This document shows positions 10,312 through 60,781 of a DNA stretch of 64,000 nucleotides, piece by piece. Source of the DNA: Acidimicrobiia bacterium (GTDB lineage: Bacteria; Actinomycetota; Acidimicrobiia; Spongiisociales; ZC4RG35). Made by a program: the position numbers and the translations under genes. The DNA is taken from the NCBI GenBank assembly GCA_041748855.1, contig JBGTCK010000017.1, positions 8,124 to 72,123 of the forward strand. The letters run 5' to 3'. The notes below the pieces were generated by a model. It had not been told where the DNA came from, ran no database searches, and worked only from the letters and a program-made list of their open reading frames with translations. Numbering within the stretch: the stretch's first letter is position 1; the number at the start of each line of letters is the position of its first letter.

Positions 10312-10785
10312 ATGAGAAGGCTCACTGTCATCCTTACCGCACTAGCGCTGTTCCTGGCCTTGCCCGCCTCTGCGGCTACGGCTCAAGACGAGCGATTCGT
10401 CGTAACCGTCTATGTGACCGAAGCCCAGACAGGCGTGACCGCGGACGGATCTCTAATCGCTCGAGGAGCTTTCGAAGTCGCCGCCGAAGGTGCGGTACTC
10501 GAAGTTGGGGTCGAGAGGTCCGTCTACCAAGTCGCTGAGACTACTGCCCGCGGCACAAGGGTCTACCGTGACGCCGCCACCGGCAACGTCACCAAGACGC
10601 TCATCAAGGCAACACTGGTCGAAGCGGACGAGGCCAACGGTGTCTTCGTCTATGAGACCAAAGAGACGATCATCTCGAACTCAGAGGGGCTCGCCGGGCA
10701 CGGTGTCGGAACTGCCGTCGTCACCGCCCAACCCGACGGAAGCTTCACCTTGGAGTCCTGGACCGACTTCATACTGAACTACTGA
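10312..10785 (+). CDS. secreted hypothetical protein
   Basis: Start at MRRLTVILTALALFLALPASAATAQDE (signal peptide, AxA cleavage); about 157 aa. Confidence 0.5.
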   Translation: MRRLTVILTALALFLALPASAATAQDERFVVTVYVTEAQTGVTADGSLIARGAFEVAAEGAVLEVGVERSVYQVAETTARGTRVYRDAATGNVTKTLIKATLVEADEANGVFVYETKETIISNSEGLAGHGVGTAVVTAQPDGSFTLESWTDFILNY

Positions 10786-10997
10786 GGTCGGCTAGCACCG
10801 CCAACGATGCGGCTCGCTGCGCCGCGGGAGGATCACCGATGAGTACCACTTGAGGTCTCTCCGTGCAAGTGTGGACGATCACCGACCTCTAAACCTTCGC
10901 TCCGCGGGTAAGACTCGACCCTACGCGTTATCCGCTGTTTAGTTCATGGACGTCATTGGGGTCGACGGGGCTCTCGCCGCTAAAGGGATCTCTTCTC

Positions 10998-13250: not shown

Positions 13251-14306
13251 TCAGGGCCCTACAGCGAGGTTGGCCAGATCTACTTCGGCGAGCACGGCGT
13301 CGGCTTCATCAGGGTCGCACTCCCTGGGCTGGTAGTCGACTTTCTTGTTGTCGGTGACAATGCAGGTCACAGTAAGGTCCACCAAGCCATCCCGGGTGAA
13401 GTCCGTTCGCACGACCAGTCCATAGCCGGTGTCGTCGGTAAACAACGATCCACGCGTGGTGAAGACGAAGTTGCCTAGGGAGTAGAGCACTGGCATCGAG
13501 TCGACCATGGCGGCCATCTGGAATACATGCGGTCCGTGGCCGATGACGAGGTCGTAGCCGACGTCGGCGAACTTCTGCGCATCGCTCAGCTGCTGGGCGG
13601 TCGGGTCAGACTGGTAGTTCTCGCCCCAGTGAACGTAGCCCACCACCACGTCGGCGCCGCTTGCCTTCGCCAGCTCATATCCTCGGGCGATTGATCCGAT
13701 AGAGAAAGGGACCGTTCCGGCCTGTTGGGGCGAAGCAGTTACTGTTGCCCCGTAGTTCTTGCCGAGTCCAACCACTCCGATGGTGATGCCGTCCGCCCGT
13801 ATCAAGAGCGGCCGCTCGGCGTGTCCCTCATCCTGGCCGGCCCCGAAGGTGACCAAGCCGAATGCCTCGGCGTGTTGATTTGTATCGGCGAGTCCATTCG
13901 GGCCCTGGTCCAGGGCGTGGTTATTGGCCAGCCCTAGGACATCTACACCCGCCTCGGCTAGAGCCGGAACCATCAGCGGGTCGCTGGCGTAGGAGAACCG
14001 CTTCAAAGGAAGTAAGGGGTCCACGGTTGTGGTGATGGCCGTCTCAGCGTTGACTATGACCACGTCGGCGTCCAGCAGCATCGCCACGCCCTCCAGGGGC
14101 CAGTCGTACCCTCGCTCTTCAAGAACAGGAAGCCCGTGATCGCCAAGCATTGTGTCACCCGCCCAAACGATCGATATGCGATCGGTGATGGCCGGAACGA
14201 CGTCGAGTGAGACGGGCTCTTCACCCCCCGGCCCAAACGGCCACAGGACGGAGAGTGACGCGATCACTCCTGCCAGCAGTAAGAGCAGCAAACCTGGCTT
14301 TTTCAT
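13251..14306 (-). CDS. CapA/PgsA-family metallophosphoesterase
   Basis: Signal peptide MKKPGLLLLLLAG; WAGDTMLGDHG and GNHALD-type metallophosphatase motifs; 4-bp overlap with the upstream gene. Confidence 0.7.
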   Translation of the reverse strand: MKKPGLLLLLLAGVIASLSVLWPFGPGGEEPVSLDVVPAITDRISIVWAGDTMLGDHGLPVLEERGYDWPLEGVAMLLDADVVIVNAETAITTTVDPLLPLKRFSYASDPLMVPALAEAGVDVLGLANNHALDQGPNGLADTNQHAEAFGLVTFGAGQDEGHAERPLLIRADGITIGVVGLGKNYGATVTASPQQAGTVPFSIGSIARGYELAKASGADVVVGYVHWGENYQSDPTAQQLSDAQKFADVGYDLVIGHGPHVFQMAAMVDSMPVLYSLGNFVFTTRGSLFTDDTGYGLVVRTDFTRDGLVDLTVTCIVTDNKKVDYQPRECDPDEADAVLAEVDLANLAVGP

Positions 14307-15139
14307 GATCCGCTACTGACAGCCGTTACCTCAGGGAGAGGCGGTTGGCCAGAACCCGAACAACCCAGCCCCTGGAGAAATTCCATCGTTCGGCCGCCGA
14401 ACCCCCCGACCGCCATGGCACTGGAAAAGGAGTGGCCCGTCTTGGGCATGACCTCGAATCGGGCTCCGGCACGGACGCCACGATGGTCGGCGAGGGCCAG
14501 GAGTCTCTGGTACCAGTTCAGGGCGCGGGATAGGCGGTTCTCGCCTTGTTCGGCGTCTAATCGGGAATCTGACCTGAGCTGTCTGCCTCTAGTGGTGTCT
14601 CGCTCACCGACAGTGATGAGAACATCGACACCGAGGAACCCCTTCACGTCCACCGCCATCCCATCCGAAGCAGTGCTAGGAGCAGTGCCGTGTGGAAATG
14701 GACGATCAGAATCTAATTGGGTGTACCAACCTGCCGCCCCCACGACGAGACGCCTGACACGCTGTGGGTACAAGAGTGCGTATCGATGGGCGAACTGGGC
14801 CCCACCAGAGAAGCCGACGAGGTCGAAGACGGGAAGCGGCATCCCAAGCTCTTTGGCGAGCGCCTCTAGCGCTTCATCCAAAACTCGAGCTGCGCCGAGT
14901 GGACGACCGTCACTGATGAGACGTTGGTAACCACGATGACTACCGCCGCCGAACTCGGGCACTAGAAGCGGTGCGCCACCGTACTCGGCGTAGGGCCGGA
15001 AGGTCGACAGGTAGTTAGGAGCGTTGCCTGAAGAACCGGGTATGAGCACGATCGGCGGAGCCGTCCATTCCTTTGGCACGAAGTGGAGAGCGTATGGAAT
15101 CGTCAACTGCTCAGTGAATGTTGACATCGTTGCGGTCAC
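14303..15139 (-). CDS. alpha/beta hydrolase
   Basis: VLIPGSSGN...DLVGFSGGAQFAHRYALLYPQRV (GxSxG) pattern; 4-bp overlaps on both sides. Confidence 0.6.
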   Translation of the reverse strand: MTATMSTFTEQLTIPYALHFVPKEWTAPPIVLIPGSSGNAPNYLSTFRPYAEYGGAPLLVPEFGGGSHRGYQRLISDGRPLGAARVLDEALEALAKELGMPLPVFDLVGFSGGAQFAHRYALLYPQRVRRLVVGAAGWYTQLDSDRPFPHGTAPSTASDGMAVDVKGFLGVDVLITVGERDTTRGRQLRSDSRLDAEQGENRLSRALNWYQRLLALADHRGVRAGARFEVMPKTGHSFSSAMAVGGFGGRTMEFLQGLGCSGSGQPPLPEVTAVSSGS

Positions 15140-16821
15140 CCAAGCCAGCTTTGGACCCGATCGTCGCTTCTCGGCAAGACGTCGACGAACCGTCCTTCAT
15201 GCAAGTACCGGACCTCGTCCGCCATACTCGCCTCTTCAGGGTCGTGCGTGACCATCAGCACAGTTCCGTGGTGATGGCCGAGAACCTTTCGAAAGACCTC
15301 CTTCGTCACCCCGTCAAGACCTGAAGTCGGCTCGTCAAGAAGGAGAAGCGGTGGGTTGCCCATCAGCGCTCTTCCAAGAGCGATCCGCTGGCGTTCGCCC
15401 ACCGAGATATTGCGGCCACCTTCGTACAGCCAAGTCTGGAGGCCGTCGGGTAACCGGGCAAGAAGGGTGTCGAGGTGACAGGTCCGGATGATCCTCTCGA
15501 TTTCCTCCGGAGTTGCTGAAGGATGGCGGTAGGTGAGATTACGAGCCACGGTGCCTCTCATGAGCGGGAGGTCGGGCGAAACCATTCCCACCCGACGGAA
15601 CCGGGAGATCAGTGTATGACTGGATAAAGACTGACCATCGATGAGGACCTCACCGGAGTCCGGATTTTCGAGGCCACTGATCACTGACAGAAGCGTTGAC
15701 TTACCCGCCCCTGTTGCGCCCATGATGGCCACCATGCGCCCTCCGGGCACAGTAAGGGAGACATCGCTCAGGGCGCCGCCCACGCTGACATTACGCAACT
15801 CGATGTCCCCACGAGAGACCGACAGCCGGCTGAGGTCCGGCTCGTCCAGAGGGCGACTCGAACTTCGCATAAAATCGAGAATCTTCCCTCGGGAAACGGA
15901 GGCTCTTTGCCAGTAGTCGTAGCTCAATCCCAAACGACGCACCGGCCCGGCGAGATGACGCGCGGCGAGTATCGCAGTTGCCACCACCCCCACTGTGGTC
16001 CTTCCAGCGATTACCTCTAGCGAGCCAACCCACACGACCGCGACAATCGCCAGCCAACCAGACGCGGTGGCGGCAGCGAGCATCCACGCACGGACTGTCG
16101 AGGTGCGAAACAGCGACCTCGTCAAGGAATCGTTCTGACGTGACAGGCGGTGGTATTCACCTTTGCTGCGGCCAAACACCTGTACCACTGCTAAGGAATG
16201 GACCTGTTCATCGACGTTGCTCGTTAGCAACGACCGCTTACGTCGAACCCACTTTGTGACCCGACGCAAACGGGGCCCGAGCTCAACCGTGATCGCAGCG
16301 CCCGCGACGAGAGTAGCAGCCATCACAAGGGCAATTCTTAGGTTGAGAGTGGCGATGGTGGCCAGACCGGCCGTTAGGACGATCAGTGATGCCAATCCTC
16401 GGCCGATCCCCCGGCTGACCCATGTCCTGAGCATCGACAGGTCGCCGGTGAATCGGAGAACCAGTCCGCCCCGCGCTCGACCCTGAATCTGACGGGGGGA
16501 CATTCCCTGGAGATGCTCGTACATGGCCATGCGCAATCGGCGAATCTGCTCATATCCCATGTTCTCTGACACCCAGAACTCTCCGGACCGACTGAGAACG
16601 TTCAGGAGCACCGCGCCCATCAGAGCCACGATCGACCATCGAATGAGAATCGGATCGGGTTCTGCGCTTCCGAGAGCGTCAATAAGCGTTCGCAGCAGCA
16701 GGAGGAAGGCCACGAGGGACACAGCTTGAAATACGGCAAGCACCACTACGCCGCTCAAGAAAAGACGGGGCAGCCGGAGAGCCGGGACCTCTCGGGGCTT
16801 TGAGAAGGGTAAGATCGTCAC
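15136..16821 (-). CDS. ABC transporter, fused permease/ATP-binding (exporter type)
   Basis: Six-TM N-terminal domain followed by Walker A GATGAGKSTL, the ABC signature and the Walker B motif LLLLDEPTSGLD. Confidence 0.85.
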   Translation of the reverse strand: MTILPFSKPREVPALRLPRLFLSGVVVLAVFQAVSLVAFLLLLRTLIDALGSAEPDPILIRWSIVALMGAVLLNVLSRSGEFWVSENMGYEQIRRLRMAMYEHLQGMSPRQIQGRARGGLVLRFTGDLSMLRTWVSRGIGRGLASLIVLTAGLATIATLNLRIALVMAATLVAGAAITVELGPRLRRVTKWVRRKRSLLTSNVDEQVHSLAVVQVFGRSKGEYHRLSRQNDSLTRSLFRTSTVRAWMLAAATASGWLAIVAVVWVGSLEVIAGRTTVGVVATAILAARHLAGPVRRLGLSYDYWQRASVSRGKILDFMRSSSRPLDEPDLSRLSVSRGDIELRNVSVGGALSDVSLTVPGGRMVAIMGATGAGKSTLLSVISGLENPDSGEVLIDGQSLSSHTLISRFRRVGMVSPDLPLMRGTVARNLTYRHPSATPEEIERIIRTCHLDTLLARLPDGLQTWLYEGGRNISVGERQRIALGRALMGNPPLLLLDEPTSGLDGVTKEVFRKVLGHHHGTVLMVTHDPEEASMADEVRYLHEGRFVDVLPRSDDRVQSWLG

Positions 16822-22530: not shown

Positions 22531-22727
22531 GCAGTTTCCCAAGTGTTACCTGATGATTTGAAGCTCAGCGGGTAGGACTCGAACCTACAACCAATGGATA
22601 ACAGTCACGCCGATACCGTCCGTGGTCTCAAGGGGTGTCGATTAGTGCCGTTCTCCACCTTTTCGTCCGTCCGTGTTGGCTGATGCTGTCCCGTGCGGTC
22701 TGGTATGGCTACACAAATGGTACACCC
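22531..22727. repeat. copy 1 of the roughly 250-bp tRNA-Asn-fragment repeat (lacks the left TGGCTACA doublet)
   Basis: Shares the flanks ...tttcccaagtg.tacctga.ga..ttg.agctc and cacgccgataccgtccgtg...gctgatgctgtcccgtgcggtctggtatggctacacaaatgg with copies at 23.6 and 25.9 kb. Confidence 0.7.
22566..22604 (-). pseudogene. tRNA-Asn(GUU) 3' fragment (anticodon loop to acceptor 3' strand), degenerate
   Basis: The reverse complement contains T-stem/loop gtaggTTCGAGTcctac and an anticodon-loop remnant; 1-nt deletion relative to copies 2 and 3; no D-arm or 5' half. Confidence 0.5.
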
Positions 22728-23531: not shown

Positions 23532-23645
23532 CGGATCTCGGCAAAGTGCGAGTGCCCAGGTGAACGCCAACGCCCGACGTTCCGTTTCCTTGACCGCTGT
23601 GCTGGCGGAGTTTCCTGGGCGGCTTGGTCAGCAACGGGAAACTGG

Positions 23646-23897
23646 ATGGCTACAGGTTGGCTACGCACGAACCGTTTGAACGCCAAAGCGAAAGTCGCAT
23701 TTTCCCAAGTGCCTGATGAAATTGAGGCTCCGCGGGTAGGACTCGAACCTACAACCAATGGATTAACAGTCACGCCCACACCGTCCGTGTGGTCTCAGGG
23801 GTGTCGGTTAGTGCCTTTCTGTCTACCTTTTCGTGCCCTACGTGTTGGCTGATGCTGTCCCGTGCGGTCTGGTATGGCTACACATTTGGCTACACCT
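23646..23897. repeat. copy 2 of the tRNA-Asn-fragment repeat (TGGCTACA doublets on both sides)
   Basis: atggctacaggttggctac ... core ... atggctacacatttggctacacc; about 90% identical to the copy at 25.9 kb. Confidence 0.75.
23728..23769 (-). pseudogene. tRNA-Asn(GUU) 3' fragment
   Basis: Minus strand reads CTGTTAA (anticodon loop, GTT) - tccat - tggtt - gtaggTTCGAGTcctac - ccgcgga - g; the 5' half does not pair, so this is not a complete tRNA. Confidence 0.6.
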
Positions 23898-25788: not shown

Positions 25789-25890
25789 GATTTCATAATC
25801 CTACCGATATCGGTAGTATTATGTCAACACATCTGTTTAGCGGAGGGACCCCGGGAGATCGTCGAACAACAACACCATTTCGGAGAGCGG

Positions 25891-26147
25891 ATGGCTACAG
25901 GTTGGCTACACCCGAACCATTCGTACACAGGGGCGCATGTCGCATTTTTCCAAGTGCTACCTGAAGAAATTGGAGCTCCGCGGGTAGGACTCGAACCTAC
26001 AACCAATGGATTAACAGTCACGCCGATACCGTCCGTGTGGTCTCAACGGGTGTCGATTAGTGCCGTTCTGTCTACCTTTTCGGTCCGTGCGTGTTGGCTG
26101 ATGCTGTCCCGTGCGGTCTGGTATGGCTACACAAATGGCTACACCTG
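25891..26147. repeat. copy 3 of the tRNA-Asn-fragment repeat (TGGCTACA doublets on both sides)
   Basis: atggctacaggttggctacacc ... core ... atggctacacaaatggctacacctgcc. Confidence 0.75.
25976..26017 (-). pseudogene. tRNA-Asn(GUU) 3' fragment
   Basis: Identical in architecture to the fragment at 23728-23769. Confidence 0.6.
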
Positions 26148-29907: not shown

Positions 29908-31773
29908 TCATGGCGTGTCGTTTTTGGAAGCTGTTGCCTGTTGTTGGGAGGATTTGTCAGGTTCTGGATCACAACCCAGGTAGCCGTCGGGGCATCGGGG
30001 CCGATGAGGACAGGGGTCGAGTTCTGGTGGAGGGGCGACCCCGCCGTCTTCTCCGGTTTGCGTCCTAAAACCGGGGTCCCATCCCAGGCTCTCTCGTTGC
30101 CTGACGGCGGCTCCGTAGGTTCCGTACTCCCGAGCCAGGCGATCGAGATCCTCTACGTTTTGGATTGTGGCGACGATTCCATGTTCAGTCTCAGCGACGA
30201 GGTCACCTTCGATCAGTTTCCTGACGTGTCTTCCGACCGTGGCTGGACTGACTCCCATCTCCGTAGCAATCGCCCTCCGCGACGGCTGTGCACCTATCAT
30301 CAGAAGCTCAAGTATCCGCCACCCGTTCTTTCCAATGCCGTAGTGGTATGAGTATCGGTGCCAGTTCGTAATGTATTTGCCTCGGACGGGGCCTCTAAAG
30401 AGGTCGTGTCCGATTGGGAGCTGGGGGTGTTGCAATACCTGAACGACTCCCCCATCCAAAGTAGGTGTGGACTCGTTCAGATCTTGCAATGCTGTTTGAG
30501 GTATCTGCAGTCTCCACCTGCTGGGTCGTTGTATCGAGTCACCCTTAAATAGAAGTTGGACCCATCCCCTGTGTTGCAACTCCTTTAGAGCTGTCATGAC
30601 AGTTTCGCTGCTTGAATAGCCGGCTTCCTGTTTGATACCCCTTACTCCTTTGGCGAAGTTGCTGGGTCCACCGGTACGCATTGCGATGCGGATAAGTGCT
30701 TCGAGGACTGTGATTTGTCGTTTTCCGGAGTGTCCTGACCACTTGAGGCTGTGTGCGACCACGCGGAGCTCGGTCAGATACTCCATCGCTTCTTCTCGGT
30801 TGTTGAAGGGGCTTTTCGATGGGCGAGGGTTCTGCGATCCTCTTTTCAGGCCACTGCGGATGGTGGGTTCTGCTTCAGTCCAGCTAAGTCCACACAAGGA
30901 AGCAGCCTCCTCGAGGTAGTGCCAGAAGATGTCTTCGTCTAGCCCGCCCTTTCCAACCAGTTCCCCGAGGGCACAAGAGGAGACAAAGAGCTGCTGGTTC
31001 CGCGTTCCCCTTTTTGCAGTCGCTGTCTTCTCGTACTCCCCTGCCACCGCAGCCCATACATATGGAGTGACTCCTTGAGGGGCGGGGAGGGCCTGCAGGT
31101 CGGCCACTAGGCCCTCGGTGAGCGCTGAGGGAAGTTCGGGGATCCTTCGATCAATATTTGTGGTCCACTCATAGACCGACCCGCTGACGTGGCGGCTTGG
31201 AGGCGCCGCAACATACCCGCCCCTCCCCCTCACGTCGATACCGGGAAAGCCATCGAGCACCGGCAGCGAGTTCCCGACTCGCCAGCCGTCAGCTCGAAAG
31301 TAGAGGTGGCGGCCACCTCCACCTGTCTGAACTTCGGCGGTCTCCGGCCAGGTGCCATAGGTCTCGACAAAGTGTCGCTCTGAGTCGTCGGACCCATGGC
31401 GCGGATCGAAGTCGAGGACGACCAATTCTCCAGTTGCTATCGCGAGATTGGAGTTCGGCGATCCCTTGAACACCTGGCGCATCAAGTATGCGTTGGAACT
31501 GGCGGCCTTACGCCATCCTCTCCGCCGGGGGTGTTTCCCCGGGCTCTCGCACTTGGAACCTCTCGGACACTCACATATCAAAGCTCCGTCGCTTTGGACG
31601 ACGCCGAACAGCATCACCATTCGCATGCTGAGGCGCGAGTACTGGTCAATCGCTGCGATGGTGGAAGTCAGATGATTGTCGTCGGGTGGCTTGCTCGTTT
31701 CACTCATAGCTCGAACAGTGCACCAAGCGGCGCGTATACTCCAGTAGACGAGCGTTACTTGACCGTGACGCAT
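29908..31773 (-). CDS. bifunctional DNA primase/polymerase (Prim-Pol) replication protein with C-terminal wHTH
   Basis: Prim-Pol N-terminal domain (LFGVVQSDGALICECPRGSKCESPGKHPRRRGW...DVRGRGGYVAAPPS); C-terminal MarR-like RRAIATEMGVSPATVGRHVRKL; gene GC content is visibly lower than the surroundings. Confidence 0.75.
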   Translation of the reverse strand: MRHGQVTLVYWSIRAAWCTVRAMSETSKPPDDNHLTSTIAAIDQYSRLSMRMVMLFGVVQSDGALICECPRGSKCESPGKHPRRRGWRKAASSNAYLMRQVFKGSPNSNLAIATGELVVLDFDPRHGSDDSERHFVETYGTWPETAEVQTGGGGRHLYFRADGWRVGNSLPVLDGFPGIDVRGRGGYVAAPPSRHVSGSVYEWTTNIDRRIPELPSALTEGLVADLQALPAPQGVTPYVWAAVAGEYEKTATAKRGTRNQQLFVSSCALGELVGKGGLDEDIFWHYLEEAASLCGLSWTEAEPTIRSGLKRGSQNPRPSKSPFNNREEAMEYLTELRVVAHSLKWSGHSGKRQITVLEALIRIAMRTGGPSNFAKGVRGIKQEAGYSSSETVMTALKELQHRGWVQLLFKGDSIQRPSRWRLQIPQTALQDLNESTPTLDGGVVQVLQHPQLPIGHDLFRGPVRGKYITNWHRYSYHYGIGKNGWRILELLMIGAQPSRRAIATEMGVSPATVGRHVRKLIEGDLVAETEHGIVATIQNVEDLDRLAREYGTYGAAVRQRESLGWDPGFRTQTGEDGGVAPPPELDPCPHRPRCPDGYLGCDPEPDKSSQQQATASKNDTP

Positions 31774-34322: not shown

Positions 34323-35492
34323 GTGCCGAGCATGACGGTATACAAACGATCCGGAGCGAAGTCTTGGTCCGTCCTAGTGGAATTCGGACGCGGCGCTGGC
34401 CACCGTCGTCGCGTTTATGAAGGAGGCTTCCGCACCAAACGTGAGGCGCTTGCGAGGGAAGTCGCGATCAAGGGAGACATGGCGAACGGCAGCTGGGTTG
34501 ACCTCTCAAACACGACCGTCGGCGACTACATGAAGAGCTGGCTTCATCAGCACGGCCACAACCTCAAGCCGACCACGGTCCAGTCCTATTCGGCAAACCT
34601 GAGGAATCATGTACTCCCCCAGCTCGGCCACATCCAACTCCAAGAACTCACCGCTGCACACCTTAACGACTTCTATGCCACGCTCCTCACCCAAGGACGA
34701 GTCAAGACCGGGTCTGACAAGGGCGGACCCCTGTCACCAACCACAGTCCGCTACATCGCCACCATCGTTGGAAAGAGCCTCCAAGACGCCCTCGAATCGG
34801 GTCTCGTTATCCGCAACGTCGCAGTCGCCGCACGCAAACCGCGCACGAGTCGAGAGGCGAACCAGAAAGTAAAGACCTGGTCCGGGCCTGAAGTGGCACG
34901 GTTCCTCGAATCCACATCCGAGGACCGACTTCACCCACTTTGGGTGCTCTACGCGACAACAGGACTCCGCCGGGGAGAAGCGCTAGGACTCCGATGGGAA
35001 GATATCGACCTCTCCCGCGGCCAGGCTTCCATACGCCACAACCTCGTAGTCGTGCGAGGCGGCCTCGAGTTCGGATCTCCGAAAAGTGGACGAGGCAGGC
35101 ACATCTCCTTGGCAACACAAACTGTCAACGCCCTCAGAGCATGGCGAGCTACTCAGGTAGCCGAAAAGCTGGCAATCGGCGCCGTATGGGCGGACCCACT
35201 AGGCCTTGTGTTTACACGCGAGGACGGATCGCCCATTCACCCAGACCGAGTCACCGACGCCTTCCGACGCAGCCAGAAGACCACTGAACTCCCAAAGATC
35301 ACGCTGCACCAGTTACGCCACACGTGGGCAACACTCGCCCTCCAAGCAGGCGTTCAGCCCAAGATCGTGAGTGAAAACCTGGGGCACTCTTCAATTCGCA
35401 TCACCATGGACATTTACAGCCATGTCTTACCCACAATGACATCTGACGCCGTCGCAAGGGTGGCCGATGCAATCTATGGGCAAGATTTATGA
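34323..35492 (+). CDS. int: tyrosine-type site-specific integrase
   Basis: N-terminal SAM-like domain; C-terminal catalytic LRHTWATLALQAGV...LGHSSIRITMDIYSHV (R..HxxR..Y). Confidence 0.9.
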   Translation: MPSMTVYKRSGAKSWSVLVEFGRGAGHRRRVYEGGFRTKREALAREVAIKGDMANGSWVDLSNTTVGDYMKSWLHQHGHNLKPTTVQSYSANLRNHVLPQLGHIQLQELTAAHLNDFYATLLTQGRVKTGSDKGGPLSPTTVRYIATIVGKSLQDALESGLVIRNVAVAARKPRTSREANQKVKTWSGPEVARFLESTSEDRLHPLWVLYATTGLRRGEALGLRWEDIDLSRGQASIRHNLVVVRGGLEFGSPKSGRGRHISLATQTVNALRAWRATQVAEKLAIGAVWADPLGLVFTREDGSPIHPDRVTDAFRRSQKTTELPKITLHQLRHTWATLALQAGVQPKIVSENLGHSSIRITMDIYSHVLPTMTSDAVARVADAIYGQDL

Positions 35493-38780: not shown

Positions 38781-39258
38781 CCAACCTCACTAGTCCGAAG
38801 ACACATCACACACTAAGAACGCTTTGACCAGCTGGAAGGTTTAGACGAATCCTCACGAAACTCCATGCGACCCACTGAATCGTTGAGCTAGTGCCAGTAT
38901 TGCCCAGGACATCAGCGGGCCGTGGTGGTCTGCAACTACTGCGGAAGGGATATCCCAAAAGAGTACCCCGTTCCGCAACCTTGGACTGCCAGCGATAGGT
39001 ATCCCATGATCGGCTGTTGTGCTGGATTTTGGGAAACGGATGGCTACACACATGCCTACACCTGCCGTGAGAGTCTGTGCATCCTTGCTACGGAGCGAAA
39101 TTGGCCACGGGCACTGGCCTGAGTGGCATATGGTCGGATGTCACGCCCCGCCCGCTAGCTGCTAGTCACCGGGGTTCGCCGGGACGGGGATGATGGCGTC
39201 TGGTTTGATGAACGTGGCGTGAGCCGGGTCGTGGCAGCTGGCGCGGTCAGCCCGGCGA

Positions 39259-39978: not shown

Positions 39979-40067
39979 AACGCTGAGATGTTACCGAATG
40001 TCTGTTTGGTTCCCTACAGCGCACAAAGCGCGCCGCGAACCTCCGAATCACCCAGATCACCCGCGCG

Positions 40068-40140
40068 CAATCCGGCAGTTCCGAACCGCACGCCGACGTG
40101 CCGATCTGCTCGGTTCGAGGACGGGTGCGTTATCGCTCGA
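40068..40140. repeat. intergenic repeat family 2, copy A
   Basis: tccggcagttccgaaccgcacgccgacgtgccgatctgctcggttcg...tgcgttatcgctc; 8-bp inverted arms ccgaaccg/cggttcgg around a 21-nt spacer. Confidence 0.7.
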
Positions 40141-40185
40141 GATCGGTGGATATCGAGTGAAGTCACTTTGGTGGTCCGACCAGGA

Positions 40186-40602
40186 TCAGTAGATGTGGGT
40201 TGCCTCGACCCATCGAACAGATGCCCAGATACCAAGTCCGGACGCGACGATCATTACGTAGAAGGCGACTCCAAGAGATGACCCGACCCCGCCTCTCGCC
40301 GCCACGCCAACAGCAAATAGGGCGAATAATCCTGCAGCGACACTCAAACCGAAGATTGCCCAGCGAGCTAGTCGGTTCTTAGGTGCCGCCACGCCCACGC
40401 CAGCCACAACCAGGCCAGCGACCAGTTGTAGTCCTCCAAGTCCGGCGACGTACGCTCCACTTAATCCATCACTCGTCCACGGCAATAGTCCAGAAGCTGC
40501 AAGGGCCACTCCTGCTACCACAGCGGCGCTCCGCGTCAGCATGGATAGAACCCTAATGCCAGACACTCGATCCGCTCTGGAACGGCAGTTTCCGAACCCC
40601 AC
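40186..40602 (-). CDS. integral membrane protein (4 TM)
   Basis: Four hydrophobic helices in 138 aa. Confidence 0.5.
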   Translation of the reverse strand: MGFGNCRSRADRVSGIRVLSMLTRSAAVVAGVALAASGLLPWTSDGLSGAYVAGLGGLQLVAGLVVAGVGVAAPKNRLARWAIFGLSVAAGLFALFAVGVAARGGVGSSLGVAFYVMIVASGLGIWASVRWVEATHIY

Positions 40603-40650
40603 GCCGACGTGCCGATATCGGGCACTCCCTGAAATGCTCGTTATGGCTCA
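40581..40650. repeat. intergenic repeat family 2, copy B (divergent)
   Basis: ggcagtttccgaaccccacgccgacgtgccgat...ctcgttatggctc. Confidence 0.55.
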
Positions 40651-40699
40651 GGAAGTTGATCTAGCGCAACCACCCGGCCGTGAGTAGCGTCCAATCAGG

Positions 40700-41503
40700 A
40701 TGAAGCGACCGGTCGTGTTTCTCTTGTTGATGGGTTGTCTGTTGGTGGCGTGCGGGGGCACCGATCCCAACGACGCGGCGTTCGCGGCCGTCGACCTATT
40801 CGAACATCCGGGAGCTGACGCTCCTGATCCAGCCGACAGAGCCGGAGCCGCAGCGGACCACGTCGAGTGCAGTTATGAGATTTCAAATGGTGGTTGGTCT
40901 CAGGATTTCGGGCCCTCTGGCAACGCTTCCAACCCCGACGGAGCACTCGACCAGTTCCTCGGCATGGACCTTTTCGGTCTTCCTGACGATGGATACCTTC
41001 CAGTGGGCCGGGATACCGACCGGCTCCTCTACACGTACTCGGCGGACAACACGCCGAAGGTTGCTGTCATCGTGGCGGCGAACTCGACCGACCCGAACGG
41101 AGAGTGGACTGTCGAGACGTACGCGACATGTGACCCAGCCGAATACGACCCATCTATCGACGACCAGCTATCGGTGGATATCTGGCTTGACTCGGAGGGC
41201 AATCGCGTGCCCACTTCAACGCTCGCCTCGTATCGAGGAGCGGAGCATTGTGGATGGGAGTCCGTCACGTTCCTGACTATCGACGGTCAGCAATACATTG
41301 GGGATCCGCGCGGGGTGCTGACAGATATCGTCAGGTTCGATGGCGACGCCGCCCTTCCCGCCGATGCGACAGACACCGGATTCCACCACGAGGGACGCCA
41401 CCTGTGGATCTCAGCTGACCAAGCCGTCGCCTACATCGTCGGCGGCGACAGTGTAGAAGCCTGGCCCGCTCCTTCCTCGGACGATCCGGTCGCCTGCGAA
41501 TGA
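40700..41503 (+). CDS. lipoprotein, hypothetical
   Basis: MKRPVVFLLLMGCLLVACGG lipobox. Confidence 0.55.
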   Translation: MKRPVVFLLLMGCLLVACGGTDPNDAAFAAVDLFEHPGADAPDPADRAGAAADHVECSYEISNGGWSQDFGPSGNASNPDGALDQFLGMDLFGLPDDGYLPVGRDTDRLLYTYSADNTPKVAVIVAANSTDPNGEWTVETYATCDPAEYDPSIDDQLSVDIWLDSEGNRVPTSTLASYRGAEHCGWESVTFLTIDGQQYIGDPRGVLTDIVRFDGDAALPADATDTGFHHEGRHLWISADQAVAYIVGGDSVEAWPAPSSDDPVACE

Positions 41504-41529
41504 ACCAGCCGGCGAGCGCCTAAGTGGCG

Positions 41530-41600
41530 TTCTGCTCGGTTTGGGGGTCGGTGCGTAATCGCCCATATCGCTTGATCTGTGCGGCTACACACAGCGATCC
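41530..41600. repeat. intergenic repeat family 2, copy C (3' portion only)
   Basis: ctgctcggtttgggggtcggtgcgtaatcgcccatatcgcttgatctgtgcgg parallels the 3' part of copy E; followed by a ggctacaca motif. Confidence 0.55.
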
Positions 41601-41879
41601 TGCCTGTCAGGGAGACGCTCTGTAGGACTTCCTTTGATTGGGAAAATTCTAAGTGCCTTCTCCAGGCTCGTGACGATCCCGGGAAGCTGTGTTTGGTCGA
41701 CTTCCAGTCGAAACGCTAGGCGTTGGCCTGATCCAGGATCTTCTCCGGCGTCACCCTCCACCATGAAATGCCCGGTTGAGGCTGCGCATCTTCATCCGCT
41801 TATTCCTCCCGACGTTGATCCCATGCAACGAGTTGGCATAAGCAATCATCGCGTTGGACTAGTCGAGCGGTGGGGTAGA

Positions 41880-42755
41880 TCAGTCGAGTGTGACCTCACC
41901 CATGCAGCGATTGAACTCGTCCGTGAACTCCGCACGTGCCCCGTCGAGAGTCTCGATCTGGCTCGTGGTGAGGCGCCCGTGGCCCGGATCGGTCAGACCG
42001 GGGTACTCAACGCCGGTTGCATCACTCACGCATTCGAGGACGAAGTAGTAGTGGAGGGGCTGGCTCGAGACGTCGTCGACGCATTGGCCGTATGTGTCCG
42101 GAGTTTCGGCAAGTGCCTGATCGATAGTCCTCTGCCCGACCGTGCTCATAAAGCCGAGGGAATCCTGGGTGAGTTCTCCGTACGACTTTCCGGTACGAGC
42201 TTCGGTGCATCGAACGACGCTGGCGTAGTAGTAGAAACCTTCAGCGGGCTCCGGTTCGTTCTGTCCAGCCCATACATAGCCGACATCACGGAAGTGGGGA
42301 GTTTCGCACCGTCCAAATGAATCCGAGTCCGTAGTGGTGAAATCGATGTGGTTGCTACTTTCGTTGTACTCCCACTGCGCTTCGGCGCCCGCTTCGATTA
42401 CGCATTGCACAGTTGCCTCAGCTGCCATCTCTAGCTCCTCCAGTGTGACCCAGTTGTCATCCAGGATTTGCTCAGGTGAGTCTGCCGAACGAAAGACCGT
42501 GCCATCGGAGACATCCTCTTCCGGAGGGTTTCCAACGGAAAGCAAAAGTGGGAGAGCTGCGACGAGAGTTAGCGCAAACCCGGCTGCGGCGTACACCCAG
42601 GGACGCCGCCTCCGTGGTGGGTCCGCCGAGAACACGTCCTCAACATCAATCTGGCTGGCTATCGACTCAAACACCTGCTGTGCTTCCGGTGTGGCACTCC
42701 ATTCGTCATCCGTTCGGATCGGGTTGGCGGATTCGAGGCGTTCAAGTCGGGTCAT
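41880..42755 (-). CDS. putative anti-sigma factor (single TM)
   Basis: Immediately downstream of and overlapping an ECF sigma gene; N-terminal cytoplasmic segment then TM helix WVYAAAGFALTLVAALPLLL. Confidence 0.45.
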   Translation of the reverse strand: MTRLERLESANPIRTDDEWSATPEAQQVFESIASQIDVEDVFSADPPRRRRPWVYAAAGFALTLVAALPLLLSVGNPPEEDVSDGTVFRSADSPEQILDDNWVTLEELEMAAEATVQCVIEAGAEAQWEYNESSNHIDFTTTDSDSFGRCETPHFRDVGYVWAGQNEPEPAEGFYYYASVVRCTEARTGKSYGELTQDSLGFMSTVGQRTIDQALAETPDTYGQCVDDVSSQPLHYYFVLECVSDATGVEYPGLTDPGHGRLTTSQIETLDGARAEFTDEFNRCMGEVTLD

Positions 42756-43267
42756 CGTTGTGCTCCTTCGATATGAGGCTCGCTAGCGAGGGCTTGTTCA
42801 AATCTCGACCGCGCTCTGCTCAATCGCATGCGCACCGCCGGCGAGTTCGATCCGGTGGCGGTGGCGATCTCCTTGGGTGTGAGCCCTTCCCAGGCGGTGA
42901 GCAACAGAAGTTCCCGGTCATCGGGCTTGAGGGCCTTGAGCGCATCTGAAATCTCGTTGCGGAGGTCGGAGCGGGCGTGTTCGTCCGGTGCCACTTGGGG
43001 CCGGCTTTTGAGTTTGATCCCCAGGTCCTTCTTTCTTTGTGACCCGCGATGGTGGTTTGAAACGACTTTCCGACCGATTCCGTAGAGCCAGGGAAGCTCG
43101 GCTTTCGGTTTGCGATCTCTGTGCCGCCACGCCACGACGAACACTTCCGATAGAAGGTCATCGACATCTGAAGGGTGTGCTCTCCGCTGTAGGTAGGCGC
43201 GTACTTTCCCGGCGTTCGCATTCCAAAGACGGTCGAACCAGGCCTTGTCCCGTTTGGTACTCATCAC
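42752..43267 (-). CDS. ECF (sigma-70 family) RNA polymerase sigma factor
   Basis: Region 2 (LLSEVFVVAWRH) and region 4 (LTPKEIATATGSNSPAVRMRLSRARSRF). Confidence 0.8.
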   Translation of the reverse strand: MMSTKRDKAWFDRLWNANAGKVRAYLQRRAHPSDVDDLLSEVFVVAWRHRDRKPKAELPWLYGIGRKVVSNHHRGSQRKKDLGIKLKSRPQVAPDEHARSDLRNEISDALKALKPDDRELLLLTAWEGLTPKEIATATGSNSPAVRMRLSRARSRFEQALASEPHIEGAQR

Positions 43268-43469
43268 TACTCATACTGTGTCCGGACCGCTGACGAACGC
43301 AACAGACGTTGAGGGGATTCTCTCAACAATCGCCAGCGACGCCTTGGAGGATTGGCGTTCGGTACTCGCCGACGTAGAGGCCCGGCTCACCGCCTGAGAT
43401 TGCAGATCGCCTGATCGCGTGGGCTTGTCGAAACGCCCACCACCATCCGAGCGATTTCGCCCACCCCTG

Positions 43470-43545
43470 CCGAGCGATACCGAAAGTGCCGAACCGCATG
43501 CCGATGTGCCGATCACGAGCACTCGCATTGCGGATGGTTATCGCT
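43470..43545. repeat. intergenic repeat family 2, copy D (divergent)
   Basis: gtgccgaaccgcatgccgatgtgccgatc...ggttatcgctc. Confidence 0.5.
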
Positions 43546-43849
43546 CCAGAATTGTTCATCGGCGCTGTTTGTAGCGGTTCACGGGTGCTGTTCAGTTGTT
43601 GTTGATTTCTGGAATGACGTCGATGAGGTTGCCGTTGGAGTCCAGGGCCGTCACTTGGTTTGCGGGTTGGTCTCCGAGGCTGCAGTACGCGTAGAAGTCA
43701 ACGTCGAAATTGGGGTTGGTGACGACTGGTGCGGCGGTCTGGTTTCCGTCAGAGAGGCGCAGGTGCACCGAGTCGGCGTCTCTCACGGTGCCGTATGCGA
43801 ACCATCGAGTCGCTTGTTCAGCGTCGAAACTGGAGCTGGTTAGAAGGGC

Positions 43850-44200
43850 TCAGAGGTGTTCGCTCGGGGGTATGTCACCGATACAGCCCATGCCTTCGAG
43901 CTGTATGCACAGGTACCCTTCAGTGGTTTTGAAAGCCGACATCCGCCAGCCGTCTGTGGAGCCTTCGTAGGTGCCCTCGGCGATGGTGACTTCGGCCCCA
44001 GCGGGTTCGGGTTCGGGCCACTCGTAGAACTCGTTCCAAGCGCCTAATGCGCTGATCACGTGTCCGTCGGCATCGCGGTATCGGATGAGCACGCTGAGCA
44101 CCTGTTTAGGGTCGGACACGAGGTCGGTATCCGCATACCCGGCCTCTAGTTCCGCTACGGCCGCTCTGACCTCAACGAGGTCGTCGAGGTCCTGCCCCAT
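43850..44200 (-). CDS. hypothetical protein
   Basis: Weak; overlapping frames make the start ambiguous. Confidence 0.3.
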   Translation of the reverse strand: MGQDLDDLVEVRAAVAELEAGYADTDLVSDPKQVLSVLIRYRDADGHVISALGAWNEFYEWPEPEPAGAEVTIAEGTYEGSTDGWRMSAFKTTEGYLCIQLEGMGCIGDIPPSEHL

Positions 44201-44222
44201 CGGTCGGACTTGGTCGGAGCAT

Positions 44223-44633
44223 TCAACGAAGATCAGACCAAAACTCCCAGAAACCAGGAATCTGGATGGACACCAACACAGCAATGGTCAGCACAGCAAG
44301 ACCAACAGCTAAGTATATGAAAGACCGACGCAGATGTGCTCTCAGCAAACCGTGGACAGCGTCCAAGCCTGGGCCGTTACTGGGTGTTGAAGGAAGTGGC
44401 CTAACCATTCGCCCAGCCCAGTGACGGATGCCTAGCAGGAGAACGAAGATGACGATGCCAGCCAGAACGGTGTTTCTCACAAGGGAGACCAATATCCCCC
44501 AGCTGCCGATGGCGTCATACAGCCATCCGGAGACTCCAACTCCCTGTCTGGCTGTTAACACGAAACCTAACACACCGCTGATCTGGGCGAGTGACCGATT
44601 GGAATACTGGGAGAGTCGATCCCTCCAACTCAT
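44223..44633 (-). CDS. integral membrane protein, hypothetical
   Basis: Three or four hydrophobic helices. Confidence 0.4.
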   Translation of the reverse strand: MSWRDRLSQYSNRSLAQISGVLGFVLTARQGVGVSGWLYDAIGSWGILVSLVRNTVLAGIVIFVLLLGIRHWAGRMVRPLPSTPSNGPGLDAVHGLLRAHLRRSFIYLAVGLAVLTIAVLVSIQIPGFWEFWSDLR

Positions 44634-44871
44634 ACCGCCAATCTACACCAAGATCGTCCGGTTGGGATCGAACGCTTTAGACCTTGACCAAAAGCCCCTA
44701 AGACAACACTTTGCCGCGGTGTATGATGACGCCCCGCTGTCCCCGCAAAGATTTGGCCCCGGTCCCCTTCATTACCTGAGCGAGTGACCAATCGATCGAT
44801 CCGATCATGGATTCGCAACCTTCATCCTCACGAACCGTGCTCCGGCATTCGACAGGACAGGGGCGGGCTCC

Positions 44872-45645
44872 TCAGTCCGGGAATGGGAGGTAGCTGTTCC
44901 ACACTTCGCCTGTCGCGGTGTACGCAACCATTTCAACGCCGAACCCGAACGACGGAGAGGCACCATCACCGGAGCCGAATTGGAAGGCCACCGTCCCGCT
45001 CACCGGGCGCTGCCAGCCAACAGGGTCACCGTGGTCATTGAGTGCGACGGCGACGACTTCTTTTGGAAGCCCGTGCCATTCGGCAGTAAAGGTGGACCCT
45101 TCGGACGAACCCGAGATCGAACCAGTAGGCAGACCTGAGTGGGCGATGGTGTCCTCTCGTGAGGAATCCCAGAACGCATCCCCGATCTCCTGAGACCCAT
45201 AGCTGGACTCCAAACGTCCTACTGACCCGAAGTCGGCGACAATCTGGCCAATCATTCGTCGGAAGTCGCGTGACCCGCTATGCCATATGTGATAAGGCTC
45301 TCCGTTGGTGTCGTGGCCCAGATAGACAGCTCGGAGCACGTCATCAGGGTTCAACGCTGGGAGATCGGATGTGTCCATGCGGAAACTCAGGTCAGGACCT
45401 AGCTCACCGGTGTCGAACTCGGGCTCTTGATGAGGCACGCCGAGGTATTGGTCGGGAGCCTCGAGAACCGGCGTTTCATCAGCGATGAGGACAGCAAGCA
45501 TTGCAAGCTTCACGGTTTTGGTTCCATCCTCCGAAGTAGATATCGATCCGGAAGGGATCAGCAAAGCGCCGGCTATCACTAGAAGCAGAAGTGTGCCCAC
45601 AGCCACAGCAAGGATCGTGACCAGTTTCCTTTTCATCCTGAGCAT
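44872..45645 (-). CDS. secreted/membrane-anchored hypothetical protein
   Basis: N-terminal signal/TM MKRKLVTILAVAVGTLLLLVIAGALL. Confidence 0.5.
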   Translation of the reverse strand: MLRMKRKLVTILAVAVGTLLLLVIAGALLIPSGSISTSEDGTKTVKLAMLAVLIADETPVLEAPDQYLGVPHQEPEFDTGELGPDLSFRMDTSDLPALNPDDVLRAVYLGHDTNGEPYHIWHSGSRDFRRMIGQIVADFGSVGRLESSYGSQEIGDAFWDSSREDTIAHSGLPTGSISGSSEGSTFTAEWHGLPKEVVAVALNDHGDPVGWQRPVSGTVAFQFGSGDGASPSFGFGVEMVAYTATGEVWNSYLPFPD

Positions 45646-45683
45646 ATCCTAAGAGACATCGACTTGGGTTGGGGGAAGAAATT

Positions 45684-45767
45684 ATGGCTACACAATGGCT
45701 ACACGCGGACATATGTTCGCAGTGGACCCGGTCGCATTTTCCTAAGTGCTACCTGATGAAATTGAGA
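45684..45767. repeat. partial copy (left portion, no tRNA core) of the tRNA-Asn-fragment repeat
   Basis: atggctacacaatggctacacgcgg...gtcgcattttcctaagtgctacctgatgaaattgag, then diverges. Confidence 0.6.
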
Positions 45768-46034
45768 AGCTCTGCAACGGCAGGGACGTGATGAGGAGGC
45801 TCACTGGGACGCCGTGATCGATGCGCTGGACGGCTACCTGCATTTGGTCCAACAGCAGCACCTACAGGATGCGGAAGAGGCAGGCGCGTCAGGGCGTGGC
45901 TAGGGATCGAATGTGATACCCACACAGGCTCCGGTCAGACCGACGGAGTCTGCGCCAGAGAAGCAGTCCTCGACAGCTAGGACGGACCGCTCGACAACCC
46001 GCGTCCTCGAACCGCTAAGTCTCCGAAACGCCTG

Positions 46035-46135
46035 CGCGCTATCCGGCAGTTCCGAAACGCACGCCGACGTGCCGATCTGCTCGGTTTCGGGATCGGTGTG
46101 TTATCGCTCATACCGCGTGATCTGTACGGTTTCAT
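46035..46135. repeat. intergenic repeat family 2, copy E (most complete)
   Basis: tccggcagttccgaaacgcacgccgacgtgccgatctgctcggtttcgggatcggtgtgttatcgctcataccgcgtgatctgtacgg. Confidence 0.7.
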
Positions 46136-47173: not shown

Positions 47174-48475
47174 ATGAGACGGGAAGTGATTCCCGCTAGG
47201 TCTCTTCCCCGCCAGCGGATACAACCAGACCAAGCAGCAGCCGAGTCGACCGACGTCCTGGCGGCGTGGCTGGTCGGTATCGAAACCGACATCTCCCGGC
47301 TGGAACAAAACCGGACCGTGGTTCTCTCCGAATTCGATTCCCGGGACGGCCACAACGTTTACGGCCACCCCTCCACCATTTCGTTCCTCAAAGAAGCCTG
47401 TCGGATGTCTGGTGGCCGGGCGAAACGACTGGTAAAAACCGCCCGGGCCGCAGCCAAGCACGCGGCGACCATGGCGGCGTGGCGGTTCGGACAGCTCTCC
47501 ACTGACCAAGCCCAACAACTCTTCGACATCTCCCACCAACTCCCCGACCGGTATCAAGCGGCCGAACAAGTACTGATCGATATCGCCGGAGACACACCCG
47601 ACCAAACCCGACAGACATTGGACTACTGGAAAAACACGGTCGACGCCGCCGGAGTCGCTTTGGAACTGGACAACCAACTGCAACGACGCAGCTTCGAACT
47701 GTCCACAATGGGCAACGGGATGGTCACAGGACGGTTTGTAATGACCGGCCTGGCCGGAGAAACCCTCAAAACCGCGATCACCAGCCTCCTCCCACCCCCC
47801 GCCGTCGGAGACACGAGGACTGCGACCCAACGCCGCCACGACGCATTAGAAGACCTCGCAGTCAGCTTCCTGGAAACCACCAACACCACCACCAGCGGCG
47901 GCGAAAAACCACACCTCAACATCCACATCGACTTAGACGCCCTCAAAGCCGAACCCGGCGGACTCCACGAAACCACCGAAGGACACGTCCTCCCCGTCGA
48001 AACCATCCGCCAGATCTCCTGCGACTGCTCCGTGACCCGCATCGTCTTCGGCCCCAACTCCGAAATCATCGACCTCGGACGCAAAACCCGGACGATAAAT
48101 CCAGCACAACGACGAGCCGTCATCGCCCGAGACCGACACTGCACCTGGAAAGGATGCCACCGACCCGCAGCATGGTGCGACGTCCACCACATCAACCACT
48201 GGGCCGACGGCGGCGAAACCGTTCTAGGAAACCTCACCCTCCTCTGCCGCTACCACCACACCCTCACCCACCACAAGACGCCACCCAAAGACTCGAACAA
48301 GCCCTCCAGGAACAGCCCGCCACCACGGGCCACACCAAACCCTAGGGGAGAACCCTCCCCCATCACCCAGCGACAACTTACCGAGACAAAGAAGCCAGCA
48401 AACTGTGGCCAACCAGCCCATAGCCGCGGTGGCCAGCGAGTGCTGGTGGGATGGACCATGGATTGCCTGAATTGA
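47174..48475 (+). CDS. DUF222 domain + HNH endonuclease (REP13E12-family-like)
   Basis: C-terminal HNH: CTWKGCHRPAAWCDVHHINHWADGGETVLGNLTLLCRYHH; N-terminal DUF222-like region. Confidence 0.8.
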   Translation: MRREVIPARSLPRQRIQPDQAAAESTDVLAAWLVGIETDISRLEQNRTVVLSEFDSRDGHNVYGHPSTISFLKEACRMSGGRAKRLVKTARAAAKHAATMAAWRFGQLSTDQAQQLFDISHQLPDRYQAAEQVLIDIAGDTPDQTRQTLDYWKNTVDAAGVALELDNQLQRRSFELSTMGNGMVTGRFVMTGLAGETLKTAITSLLPPPAVGDTRTATQRRHDALEDLAVSFLETTNTTTSGGEKPHLNIHIDLDALKAEPGGLHETTEGHVLPVETIRQISCDCSVTRIVFGPNSEIIDLGRKTRTINPAQRRAVIARDRHCTWKGCHRPAAWCDVHHINHWADGGETVLGNLTLLCRYHHTLTHHKTPPKDSNKPSRNSPPPRATPNPRGEPSPITQRQLTETKKPANCGQPAHSRGGQRVLVGWTMDCLN

Positions 48476-60417: not shown

Positions 60418-60610
60418 AGATTCTCCTTACGTTTACAGCTGTTCTCCCCCTTGCGGGAGGCGCGAAGCTGTTCCCCCAGAGACGAAGTCGAATGGGGGAA
60501 AGGTCCCTGCGCCCGCCGACAGGCGGGCGGAGGTAAGGGGGAGAGATCCCCCGAGCCGGGAGCTTGAACTCCGTTGGTGGGAACGCCCCACCCTCCCCGG
60601 CTCCTCCGTC

Positions 60611-60781
60611 GCCGGTACTCCCTCCGCAAGCGGAGGGAGAGATGAACTCTTCGCCGGTACTCCCTCCGCAAGCGGAGGGAGAGATGAACTTGTCGCCGGT
60701 ACTCCCTCCGCAAGCGGAGGGAGAAATGAACTTGTCGCCCGTACTCCCTCCGCCAGCGGAGGGAGAGTTACAAGCGGGAGG
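60611..60781. repeat. tandem array of 42-bp units (about 4 copies), each containing a perfect 10-bp palindrome ctccctccgc-aa-gcggagggag
   Basis: Units at 60611, 60653, 60695 and 60737 are near-identical; additional GC-rich hairpins at 60454-60610. Confidence 0.85.

Follow-up and report, generated by a model that had tools for sequence, protein, structure and literature searches.

Integrons are the textbook device for the capture and shuffling of single genes. That they are almost missing from Actinobacteria, Firmicutes and Alphaproteobacteria is recognized as a puzzle (PMC9024848, PMC4889954), and surveys with IntegronFinder recorded in the Actinobacteria no complete integron, one In0 and a few clusters of attC sites without an integrase (CALINs) (PMC9024848, PMC4889954). 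Among other mobile systems, tycheposons form island arrays by repeated integration at one kind of att site, degraded and integrase-less units being common (bioRxiv 10.1101/2020.12.28.424599), and the Brujita-type integrases are described, in Lunt & Hatfull 2016 as relayed in PMC8138268, as simple and directionless enzymes. Here we analyse a family of intergenic repeats in 64,000 nucleotides of an Acidimicrobiia bacterium (GenBank assembly GCA_041748855.1, contig JBGTCK010000017.1, positions 8,124 to 72,123; the whole stretch is hereafter the window). We consider it likely that these repeats are site-specific recombination sites delimiting mobile gene cassettes in an integron-like array. A wider proposal, on which our confidence is evenly divided, is that Acidimicrobiia carry an undescribed gene-capture system convergent with integrons, in which arm-less Xer/Brujita-like recombinases residing on cassette-like units would shuffle cassettes of 0.5-3 kb via ~100-bp, sequence-defined sites crossing over at GTGCCG(A/T)T, the window holding a four-cassette, recombinase-less array.

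A profile of the repeat copies (nhmmer) placed five of them, all on the + strand, at 40.06, 40.58, 41.49, 43.47 and 46.03 kb (sites A to E), and no sixth copy anywhere in the 64-kb window. The 25-nt core CCGAACCGCACGCCGACGTGCCGAT is present at 40081, 40592, 43489 and 46052 with at most two mismatches (expectation 0 in 100 shuffles), and a right-hand motif has three matches, at 40106, 41532 and 46077, where shuffling again leads one to expect none. The five-copy family that an earlier note on this DNA had reported at these places is thereby borne out, and its figure of 85-90% conservation between A and E agrees with the 89% identity that we find across 79 nt. The copies that it had called partial or divergent, at 40.58, 41.53 and 43.47 kb, are modular: B and D have the left part of A and E followed by a different right part, and C has only the right part in common with them. 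The core of about 90 bp described there is real, although the whole element is longer, ~100 nt, with a 3' end reaching ...GAT..TGATCTG.

Copy number and insertion contexts, which the earlier note had proposed as the deciding test, were the right choice. Searches for homologues covered one genome per species, metagenome contigs and viral contigs, and all counts are those among the matches listed. At least about 40 homologous copies were found in contigs of related Acidimicrobiia; the organisms that carry the homologous loci by themselves suggest an Acidimicrobiia-like actinobacterium as the source of the window. The scan of species representatives gave real single copies in two Acidimicrobiia metagenome-assembled genomes (L001, L003), its other two hits being chance coding matches; hits in Solimonas, Moorellales and several metagenome contigs were likewise unrelated coding sequences. 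Five further contigs came from the metagenome scan (L005, L012, L017, L020, L021), and the viral contigs held no match to the repeat. In L026 (an extended version of L017), 10-11 copies follow one another across 12 kb, all on the same strand, and further arrays have seven copies (L032), four (L034), two (L038), four to five (L039) and three (L044). Site orientation is uniform in the window and in L026, L032, L038 and L039, and sites follow one another at 475-2995 bp, start to start. The genes between them are diverse, mutually unrelated and found in either orientation; in the related arrays they encode luciferase-like monooxygenase, beta-lactamase-fold, ABM, methyltransferase, extracytoplasmic function (ECF) sigma/anti-sigma, glyoxalase and PadR proteins and an IS110 transposase. 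A toxin-antitoxin-like pair adjoins the L001 site, and one and the same ArdC-primase gene precedes the sites of L005, L012 and L021.

The anatomy of the site and its information content were taken from 38 homologous copies. Information content is highest at an octamer, GTGCCG(A/T)T, which is nearly invariant. To its left lies a weakly conserved arm (...AACCGAGCGC.... / CCGAACCGCACGCCGAC), of which the core described in the earlier note is the best-preserved version, and many sites have little in common on this side beyond the octamer. To its right extends an arm of ~70 nt that falls into several subtypes with conserved boxes (..GAnATGnGCGnTAnCGC..GAT..TGATC(G/T)G(C/T)GC); the end of this arm loosely mirrors the octamer, and the ends of the site are loosely inverted (GTGCCGATC ... 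GATCGGCGC). In the window, site A (40058..40161; nhmmer and alignments) joins a left arm (..CCGGCAGTTCCGAACCGCACGCCGAC) to the octamer GTGCCGAT at 40098-40105 and a right arm of subtype 1 (CTGCTCGGTTCGAGG..GCGTTATCGC..GATCGGTGGATATCG). Site E (46028..46134; nhmmer and core match), the last of the array, combines a canonical left arm with GTGCCGAT at 46069-46076 and the same right-arm subtype. The left arms of B (40577..40665; nhmmer) and D (43473..43573; nhmmer and core match) are also canonical, with two substitutions in D; their octamers, GTGCCGAT in both, occupy 40609-40616 and 43506-43513, and their right arms are of subtype 2 (GTGC-N9-GCAC... in B). Site C (41492..41588; nhmmer and right-hand motif) has a cassette-specific left arm (..CCGGCGAGCGCCTAA), a variant octamer GTGGCGTT at 41524-41531 and a right arm of subtype 1.

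In three independent comparisons, the point at which left arms are combined with new right arms coincides precisely with the octamer. The most extensive one is between the window and L038, where 40609-41534 of the window corresponds to 9892-10820 of the contig at 92.9% identity over 929 nt. Similarity sets in with the initial G of GTGCCGAT in site B and stops behind GTGGCGTT-CTG in site C, so that B and C mark the left and right boundaries of a cassette common to both; the outer flanks are unrelated on both sides, and the next right arm in L038 belongs to a different subtype. On its left, the L038 unit is flanked by a tRNA-like fragment beside the core genes glmU, prs, ligD and ku. A 69%-identical homologue, likewise bracketed by sites, lies beside rplM-rpsI-glmM in L039, and the cassette is so documented in three genomic contexts (window, L038 and L039). 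This also accounts for the odd left arm of copy C, which is part of the cassette and moves along with it. In the second comparison, copy 1 of L017 and L020 have their flank and left arm in common through GTGCCGAT and are unrelated immediately after. In the third, L005 has its left arm in common with L012 and L021 through GTGCCGATC and then a different right arm, while the right arms of L012 and L021 are ~80% alike (hand count) and lead into different downstream genes. As a separate observation, L017 carries, just 5' of its first site (9200-9290, reverse strand), an extra 76 nt relative to the otherwise identical flank of L020; this insert is bounded by the direct repeat CCGGCGT and may be a leftover left-arm fragment.

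An origin of the arrays as assembly artefacts is unlikely. The L026 array recurs in three separate metagenomes, and the gene order of the window is found again in an independent assembly (L025). The sites have no more than 35 nt of exact sequence in common, less than the final k-mers of typical assemblies, which makes mis-joins at the sites unlikely, an argument made by reasoning and not by computation.

The modular build of the sites bears directly on the suggestion of the earlier note that the repeats are selfish elements akin to miniature inverted-repeat transposable elements (MITEs) or repetitive extragenic palindromic (REP) sequences, inserted repeatedly in intergenic DNA. The repeats are indeed short, intergenic and repeated, their ends are loosely inverted, and several related arrays contain IS110-family genes. 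Against this, left and right parts assort independently and separate at the octamer, and the DNA on one side of it is replaced along with the neighbouring genes; target-site duplications were not observed; each of the five arrays named above is uniform in orientation; and the copies are clustered, the two species-representative genomes having, among the matches listed, single copies only. REP sequences and bacterial interspersed mosaic elements are short (20-40 nt), imperfect palindromes that are highly dispersed, often in inverted pairs, whereas the present site is ~100 nt long, clustered and co-oriented and has no conserved palindrome. We regard this reading as very improbable, while acknowledging that its mobile-DNA flavour came nearest to the truth: it is not the repeat that is mobile but the units that it joins. 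The proteins of the different window cassettes are unrelated to one another, which leaves no place for paralogous cassettes as the cause of the repeats or for the other origin that the note had envisaged, a duplicated segment of a longer paralogous region.

A tyrosine recombinase of ~307 aa (PF02899 + PF00589) is encoded inside the L017/L026 array, where its gene is frameshifted. Its family is large (7,670 proteins at E<=1e-40); there are several paralogues, and the gene is often a pseudogene. Relatives at 75-100% identity are adjacent to a site in all four contexts that were fetched: the frameshifted copy in L026, the intact P0001 in L032, P0019 with a C-terminal frameshift in L034 and the intact P0054 in L044. 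In each of the four, 85-105 nt separate the octamer from the ATG of the recombinase gene downstream, which points away from the site, and the leader between the two is conserved, with TTGACT and a Shine-Dalgarno sequence. The recombinase gene is flanked by sites on both sides, i.e., it forms a cassette-like unit of 1.7-2.2 kb. P0001 retains its catalytic residues (R158, K183, H247, R250, H273 and Y282), and the 64 residues from K183 to H247 leave no room for an IntI-type insertion. Against the integron-integrase model TIGR02249 it scores 68 bits (cutoff 265), matching over residues 222-284 only, and against the XerD model 130 bits (cutoff ~330). Its best full-length matches among solved structures are XerD (aligned over 35-284), followed by Gp33 of phage Brujita (PDB 5vfz, E 1.9e-13); IntI4 (PDB 2a3v) aligns over 227-293 only. 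Judged by these sequence comparisons, the enzyme is neither an integron integrase nor a XerC/D orthologue.

Three further observations concern the surroundings of this enzyme and its relatives. Beside site L026_15170, at ~15178-15300, there is a copy of the recombinase leader (TTGACT ... GGAGG ... ATG) with no recombinase gene behind it, which may be the remnant of a lost recombinase unit. In L037, a 72%-identical recombinase shares a 1.6-kb module with two small, divergently oriented genes (76 and 90 aa); the module occurs twice in 4.4 kb (9394-10995 and 13783-15383) and may represent a related but distinct mobile unit. Finally, genes for IS110-family transposases are found close to the Xer-like recombinase, at most a few kb away, in L026 (6176-7102), in L036 and L037 (11225-12274) and in L044 (7189-8214). 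IS110/IS1111 elements target the attC sites of integrons, and IS110 elements may target the sites of these cassette arrays too.

The adjacency of recombinase and site also has to be read against an explanation in which the enzyme is a bystander, the arrays having been built by RecA-dependent homologous recombination at short repeats or by tandem accretion of small integrative elements at one attB through some other integrase. Crossovers within a conserved stretch of 25-35 nt would also yield mosaic arms and shared junctions, the window array is without a cognate recombinase, and tRNA-like scars elsewhere in the window, along with an arm-type integrase, testify to accretion of the classical kind. 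Nevertheless, all three sets of junctions fall at the octamer and not elsewhere in the conserved left arm, many sites share too short a stretch to the left of the octamer for RecA, and the distance between recombinase and site (85-105 nt), their divergent orientation and the leader are kept in four contexts out of four. We deem this explanation unlikely, though it deserves to be kept in mind.

We postulate instead that the mobile unit would extend from one octamer to the next and would thus comprise a right arm, one or a few genes in either direction and the left arm of the following site. Strand exchange would take place at or within GTGCCG(A/T)T and would be carried out by the ~307-aa enzyme, a "simple", arm-less tyrosine recombinase of Xer/Brujita-like type. 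Upon excision, the unit's own left and right arms would be joined, giving a circle with one complete site, the junction of which is predicted to read ...GAGCGCCTAA-GTGCCGWT-ATCGGGCACTCC...; insertion of the circle at any of the resident sites would again yield two sites, both of them hybrid. These hybrid sites would be co-oriented, which would explain both the uniform direction of the sites and the reassortment of their arms. Being without a recombinase of its own, the window array would depend on an enzyme supplied in trans by another part of the genome, or may be a fossil. We infer that the recombinase would act on these sites through a circular intermediate, that its exact cleavage positions would lie at the octamer, and that some arrays could be active at present.

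Several observations weigh against this mechanism. A tblastn search of the 64-kb window found no recombinase of the array-linked family, the best match, an arm-type integrase at 34323-35492, being only 29% identical. Two of the four array-linked recombinase genes are frameshifted, and with half of them broken many arrays may be inactive. Sites are present in both orientations in L034 and L044, and around the 72%-identical recombinase of L036 and L037 no sites were detectable, nor any analogous 100-bp array. Inspection of the 38 copies revealed no evident 11-6-11 dyad of recombinase-binding half-sites around the octamer. Of the four window units, B-C is the only one of which the whole was encountered in another place; the sigma/anti-sigma operon is present on its own, without sites, in L042 and L043, the similarity stopping inside the unit.

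Integrons remain the closest comparison. Here as there, co-oriented short sites alternate with small unrelated genes, among them toxin-antitoxin pairs; genes pass from array to array as discrete blocks whose ends coincide with the sites (in the present case the B-C unit in L038, and bracketed in L039); a tyrosine recombinase, found here in the related arrays, reads away from an adjacent site; and arrays without a recombinase exist in both. The differences are equally plain. The recombinase is not IntI and is without the extra domain of ~35 residues near patch III, and it is embedded in the array with sites on both sides, whereas that of integrons belongs to a fixed platform at one end. What the sites conserve is their sequence; they are without the attC fold and the R and L boxes, and the crossover octamer starts the long arm. 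The cargo is without a common orientation, so that nothing points to a single Pc promoter.

The same features bear on the possibility that the repeats are attC sites of a true integron remnant, i.e., a CALIN. In its favour, co-oriented sites lie between small unrelated genes, the ends of the sites are loosely inverted, and some copies fold into long imperfect hairpins. Folding as single-stranded DNA is heterogeneous, however, with a mean z of -1.2 over 32 units and values near 0 for B to E of the window, and strong hairpins are confined to a few copies (L005, z -5.4; L026_5219, z -4.0). There is no consensus fold on either strand, what is conserved is sequence and not structure, no RYYYAAC/GTTRRRY boxes were found in the sites, the crossover lies to the left of the long arm and not at a 3' GTT, and the linked recombinase, with 68 bits against a cutoff of 265, lacks the extra domain. 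Together with the lack of complete integrons in Actinobacteria (PMC9024848), this makes an integron remnant most improbable.

Nor do the sites behave as regulatory DNA or as RNA. The earlier note had considered a regulatory site shared by ECF sigma factors, or a small structured RNA, and a promoter or operator of the lipoprotein and sigma-factor genes would agree with the position of A, B and D, 30-280 nt upstream of minus-strand genes, with the pentamer GGAAC in A and E, and with the frequency of ECF sigma genes among the cargo of the window and L032. The observation that the copies sit in gaps of every gene arrangement holds (tandem, divergent for B, convergent for C, and two further gaps), and it follows from these differing gap types that no single promoter or terminator role fits all five. 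Minus-strand GGAAC is present in A and E only, while B reads GGAAAC, D reads GGCAC and C has no counterpart; among homologues few carry the pentamer, no -10 element is conserved, and the spacing from GGAAC to CGT/GTT is inconsistent, for which reasons we rejected an ECF promoter. The 8-bp inverted repeat around a 21-nt spacer described in the note exists in imperfect form in A (CCGAACCG...CGGTTCGA) and is shifted in E, yet it is absent from B, C, D and most homologues. The neighbours of the sites in other arrays, moreover, are beta-lactamase-fold, methyltransferase, luciferase-like, toxin-antitoxin and primase genes. As for RNA, Rfam gave no relevant match across the whole window at gathering thresholds or in 39.9-46.3 kb at E<=5, and RNAalifold on 17 copies found no structure on the + strand and, on the - strand, two invariant pairs with no compensatory change, i.e., no covariation. 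A cis-regulatory or RNA role is accordingly a very doubtful explanation for the family.

Other candidates were rejected on similar grounds. A coding remnant was suggested by variable core positions 3 nt apart and by a lipobox-like minus-strand reading (IGTSACGS), but translation by eye showed that in some copies no frame is free of stops and that no peptide is conserved. ARAGORN detected no tRNA or tmRNA in or near the sites; neither it nor Rfam supported a tRNA-like T-arm in the minus-strand left arm, and the absence of tRNA, tmRNA and Rfam matches in or near the sites equally disposed of an att site derived from a tRNA scar.

Beyond integrons, three described systems invite comparison with the array. 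The modules mobilized at dif (integrative mobile elements exploiting Xer, IMEX) and the pdif modules of Acinetobacter plasmids resemble it in their Xer-like enzyme, in short sites bracketing small modules and in tandem build-up. The pdif sites alternate in orientation; those described here are co-oriented and ~100 nt long and are without a dif-like 11-6-11 dyad, and the enzyme is not the housekeeping XerC/D. A Xer/dif-type site was rejected on the same basis, the recombinase falling far below the XerC and XerD equivalog cutoffs and the dyad being absent on inspection of the 38 copies. With the Brujita-type integrases of mycobacteriophages, the linked enzyme has in common that these are short, arm-less tyrosine recombinases of Actinobacteria, Gp33 giving a full-length match, and a directionless enzyme of this type would suit both integration and excision of cassettes; the sequence similarity is distant, and the Brujita integrase acts for a single phage genome at a single attB and not on arrays of cassettes. 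The array has both the accretion at one kind of site and the degraded, integrase-less units in common with tycheposons (bioRxiv 10.1101/2020.12.28.424599), but its att is not a partial tRNA, and its units, at 0.5-3 kb, are far smaller, have no replication modules and are mostly without a recombinase. A literature search of incomplete coverage returned no description of such arrays in Acidimicrobiia or Actinomycetota, and the system is probably novel.

The limits of the four window units, of 511, 915, 1982 and 2563 bp, are inferred from the positions of the octamers. Cassette 1 (A to B, 40098..40608) has one gene for a small hydrophobic predicted membrane protein without a Pfam match (40186-40542, - strand), which is also called in L025. 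Cassette 2 (B to C, 40609..41523), the unit that recurs in L038 and L039, carries a lipoprotein-like gene (40700-41503, + strand; N-terminus MKRPVVFLLLMGCLLVAC). Cassette 3 (C to D, 41524..43505) encodes on the - strand an ECF sigma factor (42752-43267) and its putative anti-sigma partner (41880-42755). Cassette 4 (D to E, 43506..46068) holds four small genes without a Pfam match, all on the - strand (43592-43786, 43850-44284, 44223-44633 and 44872-45645), and a segment with the ATGGCTACAC motif (45683-45764). The window has no cassette in common with L026, L032 or L034. With regard to polymorphism of the window array among strains, only the identical gene order of L025 (a Logan assembly) was found, and a single protein look-up for strain variants returned nothing.

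The array lies in an island-like part of the window (~10.9-48.5 kb) with tRNA-like scars, an arm-type integrase, a Prim-Pol gene, two ECF sigma genes, a DUF222-HNH gene and many small proteins without Pfam matches; housekeeping genes follow from 48.5 kb onward. The DUF222-HNH endonuclease gene (47174-48475) is directly to the right of the array, before the core genes, and the HNH part of its product has a weak match to IscB (E 8.5e-5); genes of this type occur in the REP13E12 repeats of mycobacteria. A second repeat family (10899-10924, 22558-22624, 23712-23797 and 25960-26045) resembles, on the reverse strand, the anticodon loop (GTT), T-arm and acceptor end of tRNA-Asn, and ARAGORN found no complete tRNA in it. 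These repeats look like att scars of integrative elements stacked in tandem, a pattern that does fit tycheposon-like accretion at tRNA scars (10.9-26 kb), and the Prim-Pol gene (29908-31773) and the arm-type integrase (34323-35492) are near them. The scars are flanked by ATGGCTACAC direct repeats with an adjacent segment of ~55 nt (18306, 22704, 23637-23727, 25882-25972 and 26122), and ATGGCTACAC repeats recur at 39040-39066, just left of the array, and at 45683-45764, inside cassette 4; they could be arm-type integrase-binding sites of the other element family, stranded in a cassette. Farther along, among the housekeeping genes, 60608-60767 holds four tandem 42-nt units, each with a hairpin CTCCCTCCGC-AAGC-GGAGGGAG.

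If the proposal is correct, gene-cassette capture has evolved more than once, with a recombinase of a different clade and with sequence-defined, probably double-stranded sites, and integron finders keyed on IntI and attC folds would systematically miss such arrays. A small, arm-less recombinase with a short core site could also serve genome engineering in high-GC Gram-positive bacteria. For the organisms themselves, the arrays would point to what fills the niche of integrons in at least one actinobacterial class, and the nature of the cargo (ECF sigma/anti-sigma pairs, lipoproteins, toxin-antitoxin pairs, beta-lactamase-fold proteins and methyltransferases) suggests that they contribute to the way in which these abundant bacteria of soil and water adapt their envelope and respond to stress.

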